Shown: positions 55,757-61,445 of the stretch, in pieces
Numbering within the stretch: the first letter of the stretch is position 1
Layout of the letters: each line of letters begins with the position of its first letter
Virus record (IMG/VR): IMGVR_UViG_2706794671_000006
From: a virus
Taxonomy: Duplodnaviria > Heunggongvirae > Uroviricota > Caudoviricetes
DNA: 64,000 nucleotides
Reading direction: 5' to 3' (one strand)
The notes under the pieces: generated by a model
The model's database searches: none
Told to the model about the DNA's origin: nothing
What the model saw: only the letters and a program-made list of their open reading frames with translations
Made by a program: the position numbers and the translations under genes

Positions 55757-57075
55757 AAAAGTTGATCGCACTTAAGCATAAGCTGGACGAAATGAAAGCT
55801 ATGGGAACCAATGCAAAAAAAGAGGCATTGGCCAACATGGATGACTTCGAGCAAAGCATGGTTTCATTGATGCTCAACCCTTTCATCCGTTTTGGGGTAA
55901 AGAAATACAAAGTGGCAGAGCCGCTTAGTGAGTCCATCCCAAGTGACGAAAAAGCCATTGATGTACTGAATAAGCTGGCCTCTCGCGAGCTAACGGGGAA
56001 CGCAGCAATAGCAGCTGTTGAGTCTATCGTGGCGTCAATGTGCGCCGATGGGCAGGACGTGTTCCGTCGTTTCCTCTTAAAAGACCCGAAAGCAGGTGTT
56101 GGGATTAGCCTATGCAACAAGGTTTTTGAAAATCCCATTCCGAAATTCGAGGTGCAGCTGGCGTCACCGTATAAAGAAAAAGGCGACAAATACCCCTTCA
56201 AGCCAAATCCTAAAGCAAAATGGCCGATGATTGGCAGTCTTAAGCTCGATGGTTTGCGAGTAATTTGCGAGGTTATTGTTGACGAGGAAGAGGTTAACTT
56301 CCTTTCTCGTACTGGTAATCCAATCACGTCTCTCGATCACCTAAAGCCAGCAATGCTAGAATTAGGCAAACTTTCAGGCCACAAACACATCTTCTTCGAT
56401 GGTGAAGGAACTGCCGGTTCATTTAACCAGTCCGTATCTGCATTGCGCAAAAAGAACGTGCAGGCAATTGGCGCTATTTATCATGTTTTCGACTTCTTCC
56501 TACCGGAATGGCGAGCACAGGCTAAATCCAAAGAGTATGCAAAGACAGGTATGAAGCTGAAAGAGCGCCTGGCTATGCTGGTGGCGTTGTTTAAAAACGA
56601 TCGCAGTGAAGGCTACACACAAGACATTCACCTGCATCCGTTCTATATCATCCATAGCCACGAAGACTTCATCGAACGCTTCATGAAACGCCTGGACGAT
56701 AACGAAGAAGGGGAGATGGGCAAAGATCCGAACTCTGTTTACGAGTTTAAACGTACCCGCAGCTGGTGGAAGTTAAAAGACGAAGATTCAGAAGATGGTG
56801 AAATTATCGATTTTGAGCCGGGCGACCCGGACTCTGGTTTTGCCAACACGCTTGGAAAAATAGTTATTCGTCTTGAAAACGGCGTCATCGTTCGTGCGAG
56901 CGGCATTAAGCATAAATATCTGGACGAGATCTGGAACAACAAAGAGAAGTACCGTGGTCGTATTGTCGAGGTTCATTGTCACGAGAAAACACCTGATGGC
57001 AGCTTACGCCACCCACGACTGAAATGGCCGCGTTGCTTACGCGATACCGAAGATCGAATCGGAGATAAAGAATGA
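55753..57075 (+). CDS. ATP-dependent DNA ligase
   Basis: Adenylation motif I SLKLDGLRV (KxDG), FDGE motif; 440 aa. Confidence 0.8.
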   Translation: MKKLIALKHKLDEMKAMGTNAKKEALANMDDFEQSMVSLMLNPFIRFGVKKYKVAEPLSESIPSDEKAIDVLNKLASRELTGNAAIAAVESIVASMCADGQDVFRRFLLKDPKAGVGISLCNKVFENPIPKFEVQLASPYKEKGDKYPFKPNPKAKWPMIGSLKLDGLRVICEVIVDEEEVNFLSRTGNPITSLDHLKPAMLELGKLSGHKHIFFDGEGTAGSFNQSVSALRKKNVQAIGAIYHVFDFFLPEWRAQAKSKEYAKTGMKLKERLAMLVALFKNDRSEGYTQDIHLHPFYIIHSHEDFIERFMKRLDDNEEGEMGKDPNSVYEFKRTRSWWKLKDEDSEDGEIIDFEPGDPDSGFANTLGKIVIRLENGVIVRASGIKHKYLDEIWNNKEKYRGRIVEVHCHEKTPDGSLRHPRLKWPRCLRDTEDRIGDKE

Positions 57076-57287
57076 TCGTATTAAGTAAACGGGAGAAAGA
57101 AACGCTTCATGAAATAAGTAAGTGGCCGGAGTTCCCTCAGTACTGGAAGCCTAAAACGCGAGCTAATTTAGAGCGTTTAGGGTTGGTTGCAAACATTTCG
57201 GAAACGTGGTGCTCAGCCAACTACCAGTTAACTGATAAAGGGAAAGTATTGCTACAGCAATTAGTAGAATCAGGAGTGTTAAAATGA
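57072..57287 (+). CDS. hypothetical small protein
   Basis: 71 aa, ATGA overlap with ligase stop. Confidence 0.45.
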   Translation: MIVLSKREKETLHEISKWPEFPQYWKPKTRANLERLGLVANISETWCSANYQLTDKGKVLLQQLVESGVLK

Positions 57288-57436
57288 TTCCATACATCTC
57301 ATTAGCTTTTATTGGTGGCTTCCTTATCGGCTTCGGCATCTGTCGTGATTTAATTAAGCAGGAACTTAAAACCAAAACACTGTGCATCGGAAAGCGTGTG
57401 TATCGGGTAGTTCATGAAACAAAGGTTAGAAAATGA
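57284..57436 (+). CDS. 50-aa membrane peptide (below ORF-track cutoff)
   Basis: MIPYISLAFIGGFLIGFGIC...; ATGA overlaps at both ends link it to flanking genes. Confidence 0.35.
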   Translation: MIPYISLAFIGGFLIGFGICRDLIKQELKTKTLCIGKRVYRVVHETKVRK

Positions 57437-57723
57437 GCAATTTAACTTCTTGGGACTGGTGGTTGGCCACCTATTTCTTAGCGGTCGGAGTCGCATTCGC
57501 CTTTTACGTAGGTCAGTTAGTCGTAAAACTGTTGCTGATTAAATTTGCTAGTCATAAACGTATCGATGATGGTCTGTGGCGTCTTGGCACCCTGGTGGAA
57601 ACTCGCTACGGGCAACTTAAGGAGAACGAAACCATTACTATCCAAGCGAAACGATTCACTGCCACCATCACAAGAACACCTAGTCGTAGAGTGGCCTTGA
57701 TCAAAAAAGTCACAACCGAATAA
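57433..57723 (+). CDS. small membrane protein
   Basis: 96 aa with N-terminal TM segment WWLATYFLAVGVAFAFYVG. Confidence 0.45.
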   Translation: MSNLTSWDWWLATYFLAVGVAFAFYVGQLVVKLLLIKFASHKRIDDGLWRLGTLVETRYGQLKENETITIQAKRFTATITRTPSRRVALIKKVTTE

Positions 57724-57732
57724 AAACATATC

Positions 57733-57754
57733 GATAAGTATTTACTTACTTATC
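57733..57754 (+). promoter_or_regulatory. motif B palindrome GATAAGTA-TTTACT-TACTTATC
   Basis: Perfect 8-bp arms directly after the last CDS before the tRNA region. Confidence 0.45.
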
Positions 57755-57759
57755 CTTTG

Positions 57760-58480
57760 TGTATAAGATGACTTTGTTTTCGTTGAGATGCGACTGTTTG
57801 AACTTAAATACAAGTGCAAACGAAGAAGTCTATCTGGCAGTAGCCTAATAAGCCAAACACCAGCGAGGTCAGTTTCCAGCCTCGTTACCGAAATGGGACA
57901 CACTGAGCGAGTGTGATTGCAGAACGCAGGAGGGAACACTCATGTTCCCTCCGATGAAGTAACAGAATGGGCGGTCGGTATATTTTCAACTCCATATGAC
58001 TCCCGGATTCTTAGCCACTGACCGCCCATTCTGTTACGTCATTTTGTTCAATTATGTCGTTTATACTGGGTTAAAAAGCGGCGACGTAGCCCGGCTGGTA
58101 TGGTTAGCCAGCACACAACGTTGAGGCCATTACATTTTTATCAATTCTAAGGTTCTATTCACAGAGATACCGGCGAGCGTTGATATGTAACATGTTGGGC
58201 AAACATTCAATCGGAGTAGTGGCCTCAACGTTGTGAAGACAGGATTGTTGTGTAGGTTTAACCACTTTTCCACAACAAATGATTCCATACATCACATTGT
58301 ATAAATTACAAAGTAGGTGCTGTCCTCAGAAACATCATCTACTTAAAGATTTTGCCTTCTATTGAGAGAAGTCGAAAGCGTCTGACACTAACGAAAAGTG
58401 CAAGTAGCGGTGCGTTTCCTGGCAGAAACTAACACCGCCGCGATTGGCACTGTTGAGTAATAAATACTGGCAGTGCCGAA
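57760..58480 (+). other. non-coding region with multiple long-range inverted repeats upstream of tRNA cluster
   Basis: Stems GGAGGGAACA/TGTTCCCTCC, CAGAATGGGCGGTC...GACCGCCCATTCTG (~44-nt loop), AACGTTGAGGCCA...TGGCCTCAACGTT (~80-nt loop), GGCACTG...CAGTGCC. Confidence 0.5.
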
Positions 58481-58482
58481 TT

Positions 58483-58557
58483 GATGGTGTAGCTCAGCGG
58501 TAGAGCAGTTGGCTGTTAACCAATTGGTCGGTGGTTCGAATCCACCCACCATCGCCA
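58483..58557 (+). tRNA. tRNA-Asn (anticodon GTT)
   Basis: Manual fold: acceptor GATGGTG/CACCATC, anticodon loop CTGTTAA, T-arm GGTGG-TTCGAAT-CCACC, 3' GCCA. Confidence 0.8.
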
Positions 58558-58562
58558 ATTTA

Positions 58563-58649
58563 GGGGAGTTAGTCCGTAGAGGTAGCGGGGTAGACTGTAA
58601 ATCTACTGTCATTGCGACTCGGGTGGTTCGACTCTATCACTCCCCACCA
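58563..58649 (+). tRNA. tRNA-Tyr (anticodon GTA), type II with long variable arm
   Basis: Acceptor GGGGAGT/ACTCCCC, anticodon stem GTAGA/TCTAC with loop CTGTAAA, T-loop TTCGACT, 3' ACCA. Confidence 0.75.
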
Positions 58650-58653
58650 AATT

Positions 58654-58729
58654 GCCGATTTAGCTCAGTTGGTAGAGCAGTCGCTTTGTAAGCGAATGGT
58701 CATCGGTTCGATCCCGTTAATCGGCACCA
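58654..58729 (+). tRNA. tRNA-Thr (anticodon TGT)
   Basis: Acceptor GCCGATT/AATCGGC, D-arm GCTCAGTTGGTAGAGC, anticodon loop TTTGTAA, T-loop TTCGATC, 3' ACCA. Confidence 0.75.
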
Positions 58730-58734
58730 ACATA

Positions 58735-59215
58735 ATATTGAGAACATTGGCGTAACGGGGTCATATCCCAATCTATGAATAAATGTTGCGTTGCCGCGTG
58801 ACAACCAGTGTTCTCAACATTGTGGTGAATGCACAGGCTGATGTGCCGCAACTACAGTAGTGCGCGCTTTGCGGGGCTTGCTACAACCCTGTGTCGGAGA
58901 TCAGCGCCGACCATCACAATTTGGCTCTCTTGCAACAGCATAACGCTGAAATATGTCCAACCTGGTGCGGCCTGTTCACCCGCCGTTAGCTCCACGAAAC
59001 GGAGCGCACAACAGGTAAGAACATTTTCAGAGTTCGACTCTCTGAGTTGCCATTCGTGGTGGCACGCGAGACGTGAATGCTCTTTCCGTTGTGGTTGATG
59101 CGCAGACTGATGCGCGGAAAGAAATGCCCCAGCGACACACGAGGCGAGTTCACACACTGCAATGCAGTCAGTAGCCGGGGTCGCTAAGCCGGAGATCAGT
59201 ACCGGTAACCACAAC
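58735..59215 (+). other. ~480 nt highly structured non-coding spacer between tRNA-Thr and tRNA-Ser
   Basis: Multiple hairpins (GCACAGGCTGATGTGCC, GCGCAGACTGATGCGCG, GCTCC-ACGAAAC-GGAGC) and a T-loop-like CAGAG-TTCGACT-CTCTG without acceptor stem. Confidence 0.4.
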
Positions 59216-59219
59216 GACT

Positions 59220-59306
59220 GGAGAGTAGGGAGCATGGTGCTCAAGCGGTCTTGAAAACCGTCCCATTGCGCAAGCGATGATGGTTCGATTCCATTACTCT
59301 CCGCCA
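59220..59306 (+). tRNA. tRNA-Ser (anticodon TGA), type II; unusual D-arm
   Basis: Acceptor GGAGAGT/ACTCTCC, anticodon loop CTTGAAA, T-loop TTCGATT, 3' GCCA; D-arm GAGC-ATGGT-GCTC is non-canonical. Confidence 0.6.
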
Positions 59307-59308
59307 GA

Positions 59309-59386
59309 CACAGCGTTGAGCGGTTTGGCCTTTTAATCAACTCGATTAAGACTCCGCTAACATAAACCAGACCGCTCAACGCTGTG
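59309..59386 (+). repeat. perfect 16-17 bp inverted repeat (CACAGCGTTGAGCGGT / ACCGCTCAACGCTGTG) with ~46-nt spacer immediately 3' of tRNA-Ser
   Basis: Read directly; spacer contains GGCCTTTT. Confidence 0.7.
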
Positions 59387-59531
59387 TGTGAAATTCCACA
59401 TATTTTACACATATCCATTTACGCAATTTTTATTGTTCTTTCATACATTACTCTTATATTTTATTGTCGTTTTTTAACTGCTAAAATCGATACGATTTTA
59501 GCTAAAGTTTATCGTTAAAGGAGTAACGATT

Positions 59532-61445
59532 ATGTCATTCATTGACTATGATATTTTGTCAGCATCATCAAGCAAAGAGCTTAGAGAAAAACTTGCGGAG
59601 AAAATCGCAGAGGGTTGGCAACCTTTCGAGTCACCAAACATTGTTGAACCAAGTAAGGGCGGACCAAATGCGTACAATCAAGCAATTGTGCGATCTGGTG
59701 ATTTATCACAATTGCCCACACCGGTATCAAATGAAGATGAAGAGCCTGACTATTATTATGTAGTTACTATCGCAGGTCAATCCAACTCAATGTCATACGG
59801 CGAAGGACTGCCTATGCCAAAAACTTTTGATCGGCCACATCCTCGCGTAAAACAGTTAGCTCGACGCAGCAATATTAAACCAGGTGGTTTTGCCTGTAAG
59901 TACAATGAAATAATTCCCGCTGATCACTGTCTTCATGATGTACAAGACATGACTAAATTCAAGCATCCAAAAGCAAACGACTCTGAATATGGATGTGTTG
60001 GTCAGGGACTACACATTGGCAAAAAACTATTACCATTCATTCCAGCAAACGCAGGTATTTTGCTCGTTCCTTGCGGAAGAGGTGGTTCTGGTTTCACTGT
60101 TACAGGCTCTGAAGGCCAATATTATGAAGAGTCAGGTGCAATCGAATCATCTTTAAAATGGGGATTAAATACTCCTTTGTATAAGGATATTGTAGCCAGA
60201 ACAAAAGCGGCCTTAAGTAAAAACAAAAAGAATGTATTTCTTGGTGTTGTCTGGATGCAAGGCGAAGCTGATTTGGCAACTGGCAAGTACTCGCAGCATA
60301 ACGAACTGTTCCTCAAGATGGTCGAAGGTTTCAGAAAAGAGCTATCTCAATACGACGCACAATGTGTTTTCGGAAGTGCTGCAAATGTACCCTGGATTTG
60401 TGGCGATACGACCCACTGGTGGAAAAACAAATATCCAAAACAGTACGAAATTGTTTATGGTGGTTATAAGGGAAAAACCTCACAAGCAATTTATTTCGTT
60501 CCATTCATGAAAGATGAGAATGATAATAACGTATTAACCAATAGCCCTACAGATGATCCAGACATCACATCTATTGGCTATTATGGTTCCGGTCATCGCA
60601 AGGATAATAAAACATGGACTTCCGAGAGTAGAGAGAGTCATTTTGGTTCATGGCAGCGACGCGGAATAATATCTGATCGTCTCGCAACTGCGCTGCTTGC
60701 ACATTCAGCGAAATCATCTGCTTTTGTGAATGGCGTTACAGGTGAGATTATTAAACAAGAACAACCTACTCAACCTAAAAATGACAACATTGTCACAACT
60801 CCAACCCCGCGAACGGTTATTTCCTTAACTGGAGCTGGTGGTGATGTCGCTACTGAACAAGGATGGACTGTAACTGGTGCAAATATTCAGTCAGTTGAAA
60901 ACGGAAAAGCAATTGCTTTAACTAAAGCGGTTTCCAACGAAACTTGGACGATCAGTAAAGCTACTGACATAGCACAGGCTCTTCTTGAGAATGGAGGTAA
61001 ATTACTTTGTAAGTTTAAATTATCTGGAAACCCTGATCCAAAAAAAGCTAAGTTTGGCTTTGGTATATATTACAAAACCAGTAAACCTGTTGCTGACGAT
61101 ATATCATTCGACGGTACTGGGAGCCTGTTTCTGGCTAACTTCTTCCTTCAAACAATTGGAGGCAAGTTGAACATTATGATGCACAGGACAGGCAATAATC
61201 GAAATGTTCAGATAGACTCATATGGTGACTACGACAACAATTGGCACACTCTTGAGTTGCAATATGAGAAAGGCACAGGAACTGTAATTCCCGTTCTCGA
61301 TGGCAAGGCGGGGAGTAAATTCAAGCTGGTTAAAGACAATATTGCTCTTGGTGATGAGGCTTTTGTTTTAACAGATATAACAAACAACCAAACTCATGAT
61401 CTTGCTATCGAAACACTTACCATTAGCATCAACAACCCAACCTAA
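59532..61445 (+). CDS. SGNH/GDSL-type carbohydrate esterase with C-terminal lectin-like domain (putative)
   Basis: Block I VVTIAGQSNSMSYG; VVWMQGEAD block; beta-rich C-terminal ~230 aa. Confidence 0.5.
   Translation: MSFIDYDILSASSSKELREKLAEKIAEGWQPFESPNIVEPSKGGPNAYNQAIVRSGDLSQLPTPVSNEDEEPDYYYVVTIAGQSNSMSYGEGLPMPKTFDRPHPRVKQLARRSNIKPGGFACKYNEIIPADHCLHDVQDMTKFKHPKANDSEYGCVGQGLHIGKKLLPFIPANAGILLVPCGRGGSGFTVTGSEGQYYEESGAIESSLKWGLNTPLYKDIVARTKAALSKNKKNVFLGVVWMQGEADLATGKYSQHNELFLKMVEGFRKELSQYDAQCVFGSAANVPWICGDTTHWWKNKYPKQYEIVYGGYKGKTSQAIYFVPFMKDENDNNVLTNSPTDDPDITSIGYYGSGHRKDNKTWTSESRESHFGSWQRRGIISDRLATALLAHSAKSSAFVNGVTGEIIKQEQPTQPKNDNIVTTPTPRTVISLTGAGGDVATEQGWTVTGANIQSVENGKAIALTKAVSNETWTISKATDIAQALLENGGKLLCKFKLSGNPDPKKAKFGFGIYYKTSKPVADDISFDGTGSLFLANFFLQTIGGKLNIMMHRTGNNRNVQIDSYGDYDNNWHTLELQYEKGTGTVIPVLDGKAGSKFKLVKDNIALGDEAFVLTDITNNQTHDLAIETLTISINNPT

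Follow-up and report, generated by a model that had tools for sequence, protein, structure and literature searches.

A tmRNA-like tag-template module complementary to host tmRNA, found within the structured RNA array of an SSU5-like phage-plasmid

Positions 57760-59390 of a 64,000 nucleotide (nt) stretch of viral DNA (Caudoviricetes; IMG/VR record IMGVR_UViG_2706794671_000006; hereafter the window) contain four transfer RNA (tRNA) genes and a dense array of other RNA structures. Sequence comparison indicates that the element carrying them is an SSU5-like phage-plasmid. Positions 57700-59420 are 97.7% identical to Escherichia phage CMS-2020a, and 57725-58482 match a Shigella sonnei plasmid with 100% identity. 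Upstream, in the same orientation, lie a DNA ligase and several small, conserved open reading frames (ORFs) of phage type. The downstream neighbour (59532-61445) is a 637-residue protein with DUF1737, a sialate O-acetylesterase-like SASA domain and DUF6645 (PHROG 143). ARAGORN and Rfam called the four tRNAs alike: tRNA-Asn(GUU) at 58483-58557, tRNA-Tyr(GUA) at 58563-58649, tRNA-Thr(UGU) at 58654-58729 and tRNA-Ser(UGA) at 59220-59306. Like all features described below, except one ORF, they are on the plus strand. A first-pass annotation, made from the sequence alone, had described the region as densely structured and free of coding sequences apart from the tRNAs. Both descriptions held. No credible gene was found in 57760-59390 besides the tRNAs, and none of the internal ORFs has a Pfam match. 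Every stem listed earlier is present, and most are longer than first stated. However, the most informative feature had been overlooked. This is the first 180 nt, a tag-template module resembling transfer-messenger RNA (tmRNA) that has no tRNA-like domain, is antisense to host tmRNA and is embedded in a modular array of tRNA-like RNAs.

The best tmRNA-family match in this part of the region is a weak one to the Rfam beta_tmRNA model at 57797-57899 (E = 0.012; 17.3 bits against a threshold of 84). From this match and from reading the sequence we identified a tag-template frame at 57816-57851. The frame, GCA AAC GAA GAA GUC UAU CUG GCA GUA GCC UAA UAA, has no start codon and would specify ANEEVYLAVA. 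For comparison, the Escherichia coli tmRNA tag, verified against the fetched K-12 ssrA sequence, is ANDENYALAA. An A-rich linker (57800-57815) precedes the resume-like GCA codon, with A at -4 (57812) and C at -5 (57811). In most relatives, GCA follows UAAAU. The frame has the hallmarks of a tmRNA template: it is internal, lacks a start codon, opens with a resume-like GCA, runs for 10 codons, has A at -4 and ends in a double stop. In E. coli tmRNA, A86, at the -4 position, is the main frame determinant, and U85C is tolerated; the frame-setting rule is A at -4 with U, C or G at -5 (PMC2481249). In E. coli tmRNA both pseudoknot 1 and the tag can be replaced (PMC2481249). The A at -4 and a linker of 11-12 nt after pseudoknot 1 agree with the E. 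coli frame-setting rules.

Relatives of the frame comprise 26 distinct nucleotide versions and 14 distinct peptides. The peptides follow the patterns AN[DE]x x[YF]LAVA, ..LMAA or ..MVAA, and include ANEDTYLAVA, ANDNQYLAVA, ANDNTFLAVA, ANDNVFLAVA, ANDEQFLAVA, ANDDVVLMAA, ANDDLMMVAA, ANDAQFLAVA and ANDSEMRVAA. Among the 26 versions, codon position 3 has an entropy of 0.77, about twice the 0.39 and 0.40 of positions 1 and 2. Of the codon differences that involve a single nucleotide, 46% are synonymous in the tag frame; the remaining frames give 6% and 22%. The tag stop codon interchanges among TAA, TAG and TGA. Hence, position-3 variability, synonymous bias and stop-codon interchange give the frame a signature of translation. 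Two other reading frames were ruled out. The first is an ORF in the +1 frame (MQT...WQ*), where just 6% of single-nucleotide codon differences are synonymous. The second is a longer ORF that would start at a TTG lying in frame on the 5' side of the tag; its spacing is not conserved in SSU5 (13 nt compared with 12).

A promoter-like stretch lies at 57741-57767 (TTTACT at 57741-57746, a 15 nt spacer and TATAAG at 57762-57767), ending about 8 nt 5' of the conserved RNA 5' motif. A consensus promoter scan reported no site at 57741-57767. From the -10-like hexamer kept at the same place in SSU5-like relatives (TATAAG, TATGAT or TATAGT), we infer a putative promoter here. Promoter-like signals also occur in T1-like phages (TTGACA-17-TAGATT) and Felix-like phages (TTGACA..TATAGT), and in several lineages the promoter is directly ahead of the 5' motif.

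The conserved RNA spans 57776-57927, and its tag frame is followed by conserved helices. A helix closes the end of the frame (57834-57863; CUGG at 57834-57837 with CCAG at 57860-57863) and is analogous to tmRNA helix 5. It is 100% paired, with a compensatory change from G-C to A-U in LMAA-type relatives. Next is pseudoknot A (57864-57898), with stem 1 formed by 57864-57868 and 57880-57884, and stem 2 by UUCCA (57874-57878) and UGGGA (57894-57898). Across 21 diverse relatives, pairing is complete (100%) in both stems, which show 3 and 2 compensatory pairs, and the aligned SSU5-type variants of stem 2 include UUCCA/UGGAA and CUCCA/UGGAG. A pseudoknot B-like element (57899-57927) comprises stem 1, CACACU (57899-57904) with AGUGUG (57910-57915), and a possible stem 2, GCG (57907-57909) with CGC (57925-57927). 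Pairing of stem 1 is likewise 100%, and 2 of its pairs show compensatory changes. Stem 2 is weak in the SSU5-type copy of the window and occurs in compact relatives as four complementary variants: GCCC/GGGC, GCCCAC/GUGGGC, GCCCUGA/UCAGGGC and GACGGGAG/CUCCCGUC.

Covariation was tested in the 21 relatives for five helices: the closing helix, a small inner helix, both stems of pseudoknot A and stem 1 of pseudoknot B. Overall, 98.5% of cells are paired and 9 of the 22 pairs show compensatory changes; none of 500 column shuffles matched this, and slid controls were 31-44% paired. A covariance model (R1) built from the 21 sequences, none of them SSU5-type, has a sole match in the 64 kb window, at 57804-57944 (74.9 bits, E = 7e-14). 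No upstream pseudoknot resembling pseudoknot 1 of tmRNA was found in the module, and candidate 5'-domain helices do not covary. One such candidate, CUUUGCGG/CCACAAAG, was rejected because variants in S5, P1 and relative L103 do not support it.

Lacking a tRNA-like domain, the module is not a canonical tmRNA; in its working it most resembles the coding piece of a two-piece tmRNA. ARAGORN made no tmRNA call in the window. With default settings at 134 loci it gave no credible tmRNA, the one low-quality call (L117) spanning flanking tRNAs. 'Permuted tmRNA' calls made by relaxed ARAGORN were rejected, as their domain assignments were arbitrary. A T-arm followed by ACCA at the end of the unit in Klebsiella phage 6991 (L006) was also discounted; it is the 3' half of a deleted tRNA-Met gene. 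There is no match to RF00023 in the window. Rfam tmRNA models match the tag region alone and below threshold, the best being the permuted (two-piece) families. Against RF04321, the best relatives score 28 bits (gathering threshold 47), and in the alignment the 118-nt acceptor segment is replaced by 5 nt in the phage RNA.

Upstream of the linker is an antisense domain (57776-57799), consisting of block 1, GUUUUCGUUG (57776-57785), and block 2, UGCGACUGUUU (57789-57799). Pairing was predicted by RNAduplex with E. coli K-12 ssrA as the host target. Block 1 pairs with tmRNA nt 95-104 and block 2 with nt 82-92. The SSU5-type duplex (nt 81-105) takes in the linker, UAGUC, the resume codon and codons 1-5. 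The window and Felix types target just this single-stranded part. Compact types (T1-like, lambdoid, P1, Kuttervirus and S5) cover nt 54-107 at -41 to -46 kcal/mol; their shuffled sequences reach -27 to -35 kcal/mol, and 0 of 150 equalled the observed energy (6991 and P1 tested with 150). The tmRNA target site is the same across all lineages. The most conserved motif of the RNA, 5' (U)AGUUUUCGU, pairs with tmRNA nt 98-106 (codons 3-6), and GCGACU pairs with nt 86-91 (AGUC and bases 1 and 2 of the resume codon). Within pseudoknot 1 of tmRNA, UUGCGG pairs with the 3' strand, CCGCAA, and CUGACC with GGUUGG; a U-run pairs with the tmRNA A-run. Comparison with the host gene thus shows that the 5' blocks are a collinear, antiparallel complement of host tmRNA, predicted to pair from pseudoknot 1 or the linker through the first tag codons. 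The domain pairs far less strongly with the tag region of its own RNA (-11 to -25 kcal/mol, median -16, against a host duplex median of -35). Each of the 80 distinct 5' domains has UUUUCG and GCGAYU-like blocks, and the segments between blocks vary freely. Variants within blocks are mostly C-to-U or A-to-G, compatible with wobble pairing to a fixed partner.

The tag module occurs in at least eight phage lineages. We found the frame in SSU5, the Yersinia pestis plasmid pG8786 (pMT1-type) and Klebsiella and Enterobacter plasmids, and in P1, directly after the 'dicF-like region'. It is also found in T1-like Klebsiella phages, Buchananvirus, lambdoid prophages, Kuttervirus, Felixounavirus, Mooglevirus, Kolesnikvirus, N4-like Schitovirus (Schitoviridae), Cronobacter Drexlervirus (Drexlerviridae) and Chaseviridae. 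Among complete E. coli genomes, 656 of 5426 (12%) have the module, at 704 places; RefSeq annotates these places with nothing or with 'hypothetical protein'. BLAST found no similarity between the module and host ssrA. Hence, any capture would be ancient and the module maintained since. In open-access papers and preprints we found no earlier description of such a phage tmRNA-like or anti-tmRNA RNA. When RefSeq plasmids and viruses were searched exhaustively in 2014, ssrA turned up in mycobacteriophages only (PMC4131195). In surveys from 2014 and 2025, the only phages named as having a tmRNA are mycobacteriophages and Bacillus phage G (PMC4131195, PMC11915505); the 2025 survey counts 79 phage sequences without naming them (PMC11915505).

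These observations suggest a mechanism. The RNA might dock on host tmRNA and present the phage tag template, a proposal that we regard as evenly balanced. Annealing would hide the resume codon and tag template of the host. Given the antiparallel duplex, the exit of the phage strand would be beside host pseudoknot 1, where the 11-nt host linker starts. Past the duplex, the phage strand would run on into its own A-rich linker, resume codon and tag frame. The host alanyl-tRNA-like domain and SmpB would still rescue stalled ribosomes, with the phage supplying the template. Rescued proteins would then receive ...LAVA, ...LMAA or ...MVAA rather than ...ALAA, and their fate would be altered. Put more broadly, and more tentatively, many enterobacterial phages and phage-plasmids may encode a 'tag-swap' RNA that turns host tmRNA into a chimeric two-piece tmRNA, in which a phage peptide (...LAVA) replaces the ClpXP degron ...ALAA. 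With the same reserve, its possible carriers are P1, SSU5/pMT1/pHCM2-like elements, Felix O1-like, Vi01-like, T1-like and N4-like phages, and lambdoid prophages.

Several points weigh against tag replacement. The duplex formed by the window copy (helices of 10 and 11 base pairs (bp), -27.8 kcal/mol) is unexceptional on its own, with 9 of 150 shuffles reaching its energy. When nested structure is considered, the net gain from cofolding is modest (-2 to -13 kcal/mol), and for S5 and EC6 it is no better than for controls with shuffled 5' domains. Erwinia phage Omen (L141, 365-445) has an ANDAQFLAVA module whose block 2, GCUUCUAUUUUU, is divergent, so that its host tmRNA would be expected to contain AAUAGAAGCAAA; among the Erwinia genomes scanned for this host covariation, none has AAUAGAAGCAAA at the expected place. 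The Omen lineage may pair less well or target something else. Ribosomes could unwind the duplex and read the host tag, and placing the resume codon of a second strand in the A-site is a hypothetical step. Alternatively, ssrA-like DNA could have undergone an inverted duplication, with the complementarity left behind as a relic.

The same complementarity would also serve in an anti-tmRNA inhibitor or decoy, which would pair with host tmRNA, or titrate SmpB or S1, and block trans-translation with its tag frame unused. A precedent exists in DS6A, where a molecule comprising just the tRNA-like domain inhibits tmRNA (PMC4131195, PMC11915505). However, pure antisense needs no frame, yet variation is biased towards synonymous changes and all three stop codons interchange. 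Furthermore, A at -4 and the AND..Y/F residues are kept. We consider such an inhibitor unlikely.

The region is structured non-coding RNA shared by related elements. Both conservation and compensatory changes were found in relatives, whereas the first-pass annotation would have been refuted by the absence of the two. Folding is far more stable than in shuffled controls for 57725-58482 (z = -9.5) and 59300-59420 (z = -10), and z is only -1.5 for 58727-59222, between tRNA-Thr and tRNA-Ser. The evidence for structure in this last segment is comparative, not energetic. An Rfam E-value scan of 57000-60000 with 4227 covariance models gave tRNAs and noise only; no group I or II intron, ribozyme, riboswitch or other family was matched, which leaves an earlier suggestion of intron or ribozyme remnants unsupported.

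Between the tag module and tRNA-Asn are further hairpins. The first, a short form of the m4 module described below, occupies 57929-57952, as seen by inverted repeat search and comparison. Its 10 bp stem (57929-57938 with 57943-57952) is 100% complementary, just as first described. In SSU5, Klebsiella and L028-type relatives the stem sequence is wholly different and the hairpin is kept, with several compensatory pairs. Long hairpin I1 (57954-58042) had been reported as a 14 bp stem; its arms are in fact 26 nt (57954-57979 and 58017-58042), with 92% complementarity, and L028-type relatives have CGAGAU/AUCUCG in place of CAGAAU/AUUCUG. Two smaller conserved hairpins follow (58052-58061 with 58080-58089, and 58094-58099 with 58107-58112; GCUGGY/RCCAGC becomes GCUGAC/GUCAGC). 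Likewise, the stem of long hairpin I3 (58114-58235; CACAACGUUGAGGCC.../...GGCCUCAACGUUGUG), first given as 13 bp, has 20 nt arms (58114-58133 and 58216-58235) separated by 82 nt. Compensatory changes affect three of its stem pairs, in a GGCC/GGCC segment. Downstream of the module as a whole, 14 of 95 predicted pairs show compensatory changes in a comparison of six sequences only. A variable structured spacer with several hairpins (58236-58482) extends to tRNA-Asn and is conserved among close E. coli-type relatives only.

The notion that the array holds degenerate tRNAs also found support: tRNA-derived or tRNA-shaped pieces are present. Hairpin I4 (58728-58827; CAACAUAAUAUUGAGAACAUUGG / CCAGUGUUCUCAACAUUGUGGUG) also occurs in the leader of the P1 ban operon. 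More widely, 58738-59028 is 93% identical over 291 nt to the P1 sequence between trnT and tciA, which is that leader. Lambdoid phages of Klebsiella, Enterobacter and Cronobacter have sequences similar to 58982-59114, located between Q or the tRNAs on one side and the holin gene on the other. The hairpins noted for their GCTGATG and ACTGATG loops are one module in two copies (58809-58851 and 59078-59120). Copy 1 of module m5 (58820-58919) has a closing stem, UUGUGGUG / CAUCACAA, a D-like hairpin (58831-58846; loop GGCUGA) and a T-like hairpin (58893-58911; loop AGAUCAGCG). Copy 2 (59087-59216) has the stem CGUUGUGGUU / AACCACAACG, a D-like hairpin at 59100-59115 (loop GACUGA) and a T-like hairpin at 59188-59206 (loop AGAUCAGUA). 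Compensatory variants occur in all three helices among 12-16 distinct copies, and the loop-loop pair covaries (GCUGA/UCAGC in copy 1 and ACUGA/UCAGU in copy 2). The conserved ends of copy 2 are about 90% identical to Klebsiella phage 6991. A meaning of the AGAUCAG loops as GATC/Dam sites was ruled out, as many copies read AGUUCAG.

Module m4 (59007-59094) is a long stem, CACAACAGGUAAGAACAUU / AAUGCUCUUUCCGUUGUG, around a T-arm-like hairpin at 59028-59044. This hairpin is the orphan T-loop CAGAG-TTCGACT-CTCTG of the first-pass annotation, now recognised as one of the m4 inserts. The module type is defined by the long stem CACAACAGGUAAG.../...CUUUCCGUUGUG; inserts vary and are sometimes tRNA-like without a D-arm. 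ARAGORN and Rfam call neither m4 nor m5 as a tRNA. In T1-like and lambdoid phages, m4 stems flank the tag and m5 modules. The order in T1-like phages and lambdoid prophages is a promoter or tR' terminator, m4, the tag module, m4, m5 and then tRNAs or a terminator. Therefore, the modules appear to share one transcription unit. Just 5' of m4, reading of the sequence revealed a hairpin, GCUCC-ACGAAAC-GGAGC (58989-59005), with a loop complementary to block 1; relative L084 has GCCCC-ACGAAAC-GGGGC, a covarying stem. The loop complements the tag-RNA 5' motif UUUCGU and resembles the tmRNA target site. On sequence grounds the hairpin could be an internal competitor or contact site.

Other RNAs in relatives bear on these modules. 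Sub-threshold matches to the Salmonella small RNA family STnc100 (RF02076; threshold 47 bits) fall on m5-like stretches of P1 (L002, 2845-2964; 33 bits) and of L007 (2712-2790; 26 bits), and STnc100 may belong to the same module family. In Kutterviruses, the tag module is directly followed by a tRNA-like gene of unusually large size (about 135-150 nt), which has a T-arm and ends in ...CUCCA (L014, PhiSH19, about 1343-1496; L017, 2462-2525); this gene is annotated 'tRNA-OTHER' in phage rabagast and is not called by ARAGORN. Prophage RNAs near the arrays include IsrJ (62.6 bits), 3' of Q in phage CobraSix (L004, 1393-1466), and int-alpA RNA (43.7 bits) in an IMG/VR prophage contig (L029, 264-330).

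The tRNA shape of m5 invites another explanation, an autonomous phage two-piece tmRNA whose acceptor is m5 or a neighbouring tRNA or tRNA-like gene rather than host tmRNA. Consistent with this, m5 has an acceptor-like stem, D- and T-like hairpins, a covarying loop-loop contact and a variable insert in place of the anticodon arm. In many phages m4 and m5 or tRNAs are 3' of the tag module, and the weak Rfam matches are to permuted (two-piece) tmRNA models. However, m5 was not found beside the tag module at Kuttervirus, Felix-like, Mooglevirus and N4-like S5 loci, and in S5 the unit closes with a terminator and no tRNA lies within 2.5 kb. Moreover, reading of the sequence finds neither G3:U70 nor an encoded CCA in the acceptor-like stems of m4 and m5, and no conserved pairing between tag RNA and m5 was seen. 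We judge an autonomous system quite unlikely.

The conserved block ends at hairpin I2 (59305-59390; z = -10), 3' of tRNA-Ser. Its arms, first described as a perfect 16-17 bp inverted repeat, are 24 nt (59305-59328 and 59367-59390). Plasmids of the E. coli and Klebsiella types have the same stem but different loops; the stem is thus conserved in sequence, without covariation. A terminator scan reported no site at 59305-59395 and, lacking a T-run after the stem (GUGUGAAAUUCC), I2 is not an intrinsic terminator. Homology of the window to E. coli relatives stops exactly at the 3' end of I2. Cargo beyond (59391 onward) varies: a SASA-esterase-like protein in the window, AbiGi in plasmid L010 and a YafO toxin-antitoxin pair in L012. 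In Cyrano, an integrase lies about 1.7 kb downstream.

Relatives differ from the window by whole cassettes, ending at direct CACAAC repeats. For example, L013 lacks exactly 59014-59218, and Cyrano lacks tRNA-Tyr and 58737-59207. The stem CACA(A/G)CGUUGAG is common to hairpins I2 and I3. Plasmid pG8786 of Y. pestis has an I3 hairpin whose 3' arm is the I2 version (CAACGCUGUG); there, the tRNAs are absent and caf1R then follows. The F1 capsule locus (caf1R, caf1M) of this plasmid (L009, 2290-3224) starts directly after the hybrid I3/I2 hairpin, and the SSU5-like tRNA block is gone. This arrangement suggests that the virulence locus sits at a recombination point of the RNA array. Hence, the earlier idea of a recombination site stands in part: several hairpin stems lie at insertion, deletion or recombination junctions, but the hairpin after tRNA-Ser is not supported as a recombinase site. 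By eye, CACAAC/GTTGTG resembles an attC core, yet the RYYYAAC...GTTRRRY core could not be fitted; no attC-type consensus was evident by eye at the hairpin, where a formal search was not run. The CACAAC breakpoints fit homologous recombination and an integron-like or miniature inverted-repeat transposable element (MITE)-like element equally well.

Such junctions could also mean that the array is a relic and plumbing, with the tag module a decaying, captured ssrA fragment and the rest serving tRNA-precursor processing (RNase P, E or III sites and stabilising hairpins) or left as recombination scars. The location in tRNA clusters, or where lambdoid phages hold tRNAs, fits this account, as do indel junctions at hairpin stems and the invariant I2 stem without covariation. 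However, persistence in at least eight phage lineages and in 656 E. coli genomes, with two pseudoknots that show compensatory changes, would not be expected of a relic. Nor does decay agree with an intact frame showing stop-codon turnover, with retained promoter-like signals or with the absence of BLAST similarity to host ssrA. We hold this explanation to be very unlikely.

On the minus strand, a 188-residue ORF (58852-59418) has PHROG matches only to the families of P1 Upl and Plp (14500 and 7444). In P1, plp and upl (L002, NC_005856; 2237-2806, equivalent to record positions 69472-70041) are antisense over m4 and m5 modules. Between P1 and the window the Upl frame has 18 differing sites, of which 4 are synonymous and 14 non-synonymous, with 1, 8 and 9 at codon positions 1, 2 and 3. 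Since these substitutions are not protein-like, the Upl and Plp annotations and PHROGs 14500 and 7444 are probably spurious. The region was taken as non-coding on the plus strand because internal ORFs lack Pfam matches, the Upl frame does not behave as protein and P1 homology ends inside plp. Although the PHROG matches and the P1 annotation favour minus-strand coding, we dismiss it as highly improbable given the excess of non-synonymous differences, codon positions 2 and 3 being about equally hit, homology to P1 that stops inside plp, an ORF antisense over tRNA-Ser, the lack of Pfam domains and RNA covariation on the plus strand.

Taken together with docking of the RNA on host tmRNA, the whole region might be one late or accessory RNA operon of tRNAs, tRNA-shaped modules and long hairpins, headed by a trans-acting tmRNA 'coding piece'. 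Modules m4 and m5 and hairpins I1-I4 would be folded spacers, or tRNA-like punctuation or stability elements, of the same transcript. The shared stems (CACAAC...GUUGUG) would act as homologous recombination points that shuffle tRNA and RNA cassettes between phages and bound the cargo hot-spot. Exchange of cassettes at common hairpin stems would explain near-identical patches in the tRNA regions of unrelated phages. Trans-translation is the main bacterial ribosome-rescue path, and several phages depend on it. If the proposal is true, the phage gains direct control over the tag written on rescued proteins, which would be a previously unrecognised viral reprogramming of bacterial protein quality control. 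Carriers of the module include model and medically relevant elements: P1, the Y. pestis pMT1-type plasmid, Salmonella SSU5-like plasmids and 12% of complete E. coli genomes. For P1, 'upl/plp' would be reassigned to non-coding RNA.

The closest parallel is the two-piece tmRNA of Alphaproteobacteria, Betaproteobacteria and Cyanobacteria (RF01849, RF01850, RF01851, RF04321). Both have a coding piece with a resume codon and tag frame. In two-piece tmRNA this pairs with a separate acceptor piece; here, the pairing partner is predicted. The sole Rfam signals of the phage RNA are sub-threshold matches to these models, and the RF04321 consensus ...CAUAAAUGCAAACGAUAAC is almost identical to the phage linker and first codons. 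However, the phage coding piece has no co-encoded acceptor. Its complementary partner is the one-piece tmRNA of the host, and pairing spans the linker and tag region of that partner rather than helix 2. The tmRNAs of mycobacteriophages (Bxz1, Cali, Catera and others) and Bacillus phage G, and the DS6A molecule, are likewise phage genes that intervene in trans-translation, and DS6A indicates that the host system can be acted upon by just part of a tmRNA (PMC4131195). In contrast to these complete tmRNAs or tRNA-like half, the module described here is the opposite half, a template and pseudoknots with an antisense anchor.

E. coli tmRNA (ssrA, RF00023) also has a 10-codon tag starting GCA AAC GA with A at -4. 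In both tags, the residues at positions 3-4 are acidic or amides, position 6 is aromatic, the C-terminus is hydrophobic and A-rich, and a double stop follows. In both RNAs a helix covers the stop codons, with pseudoknots downstream. Unlike E. coli tmRNA, the phage RNA has no acceptor stem, T-arm, G3:U70, CCA or pseudoknot 1; its pseudoknots are unrelated in sequence and its tag ends in LAVA, LMAA or MVAA. Structured non-tRNA RNAs beside phage tRNAs, and probably co-transcribed with them, have parallels in T4 'species 1 and 2', stable RNAs within the phage tRNA cluster, and in the P1 ban-operon leader (dicF-like region, trnA, trnT and 'upl/plp'). In P1, however, the homologous stretch is annotated as two minus-strand proteins. 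Finally, AgvB and AsxR of enterohaemorrhagic E. coli prophages are anti-small RNAs that base pair with host non-coding RNAs. Like them, the RNA described here is of phage origin and has a conserved 5' region antisense to an abundant host regulatory RNA. The difference is that its target is tmRNA and that it carries a translatable template.

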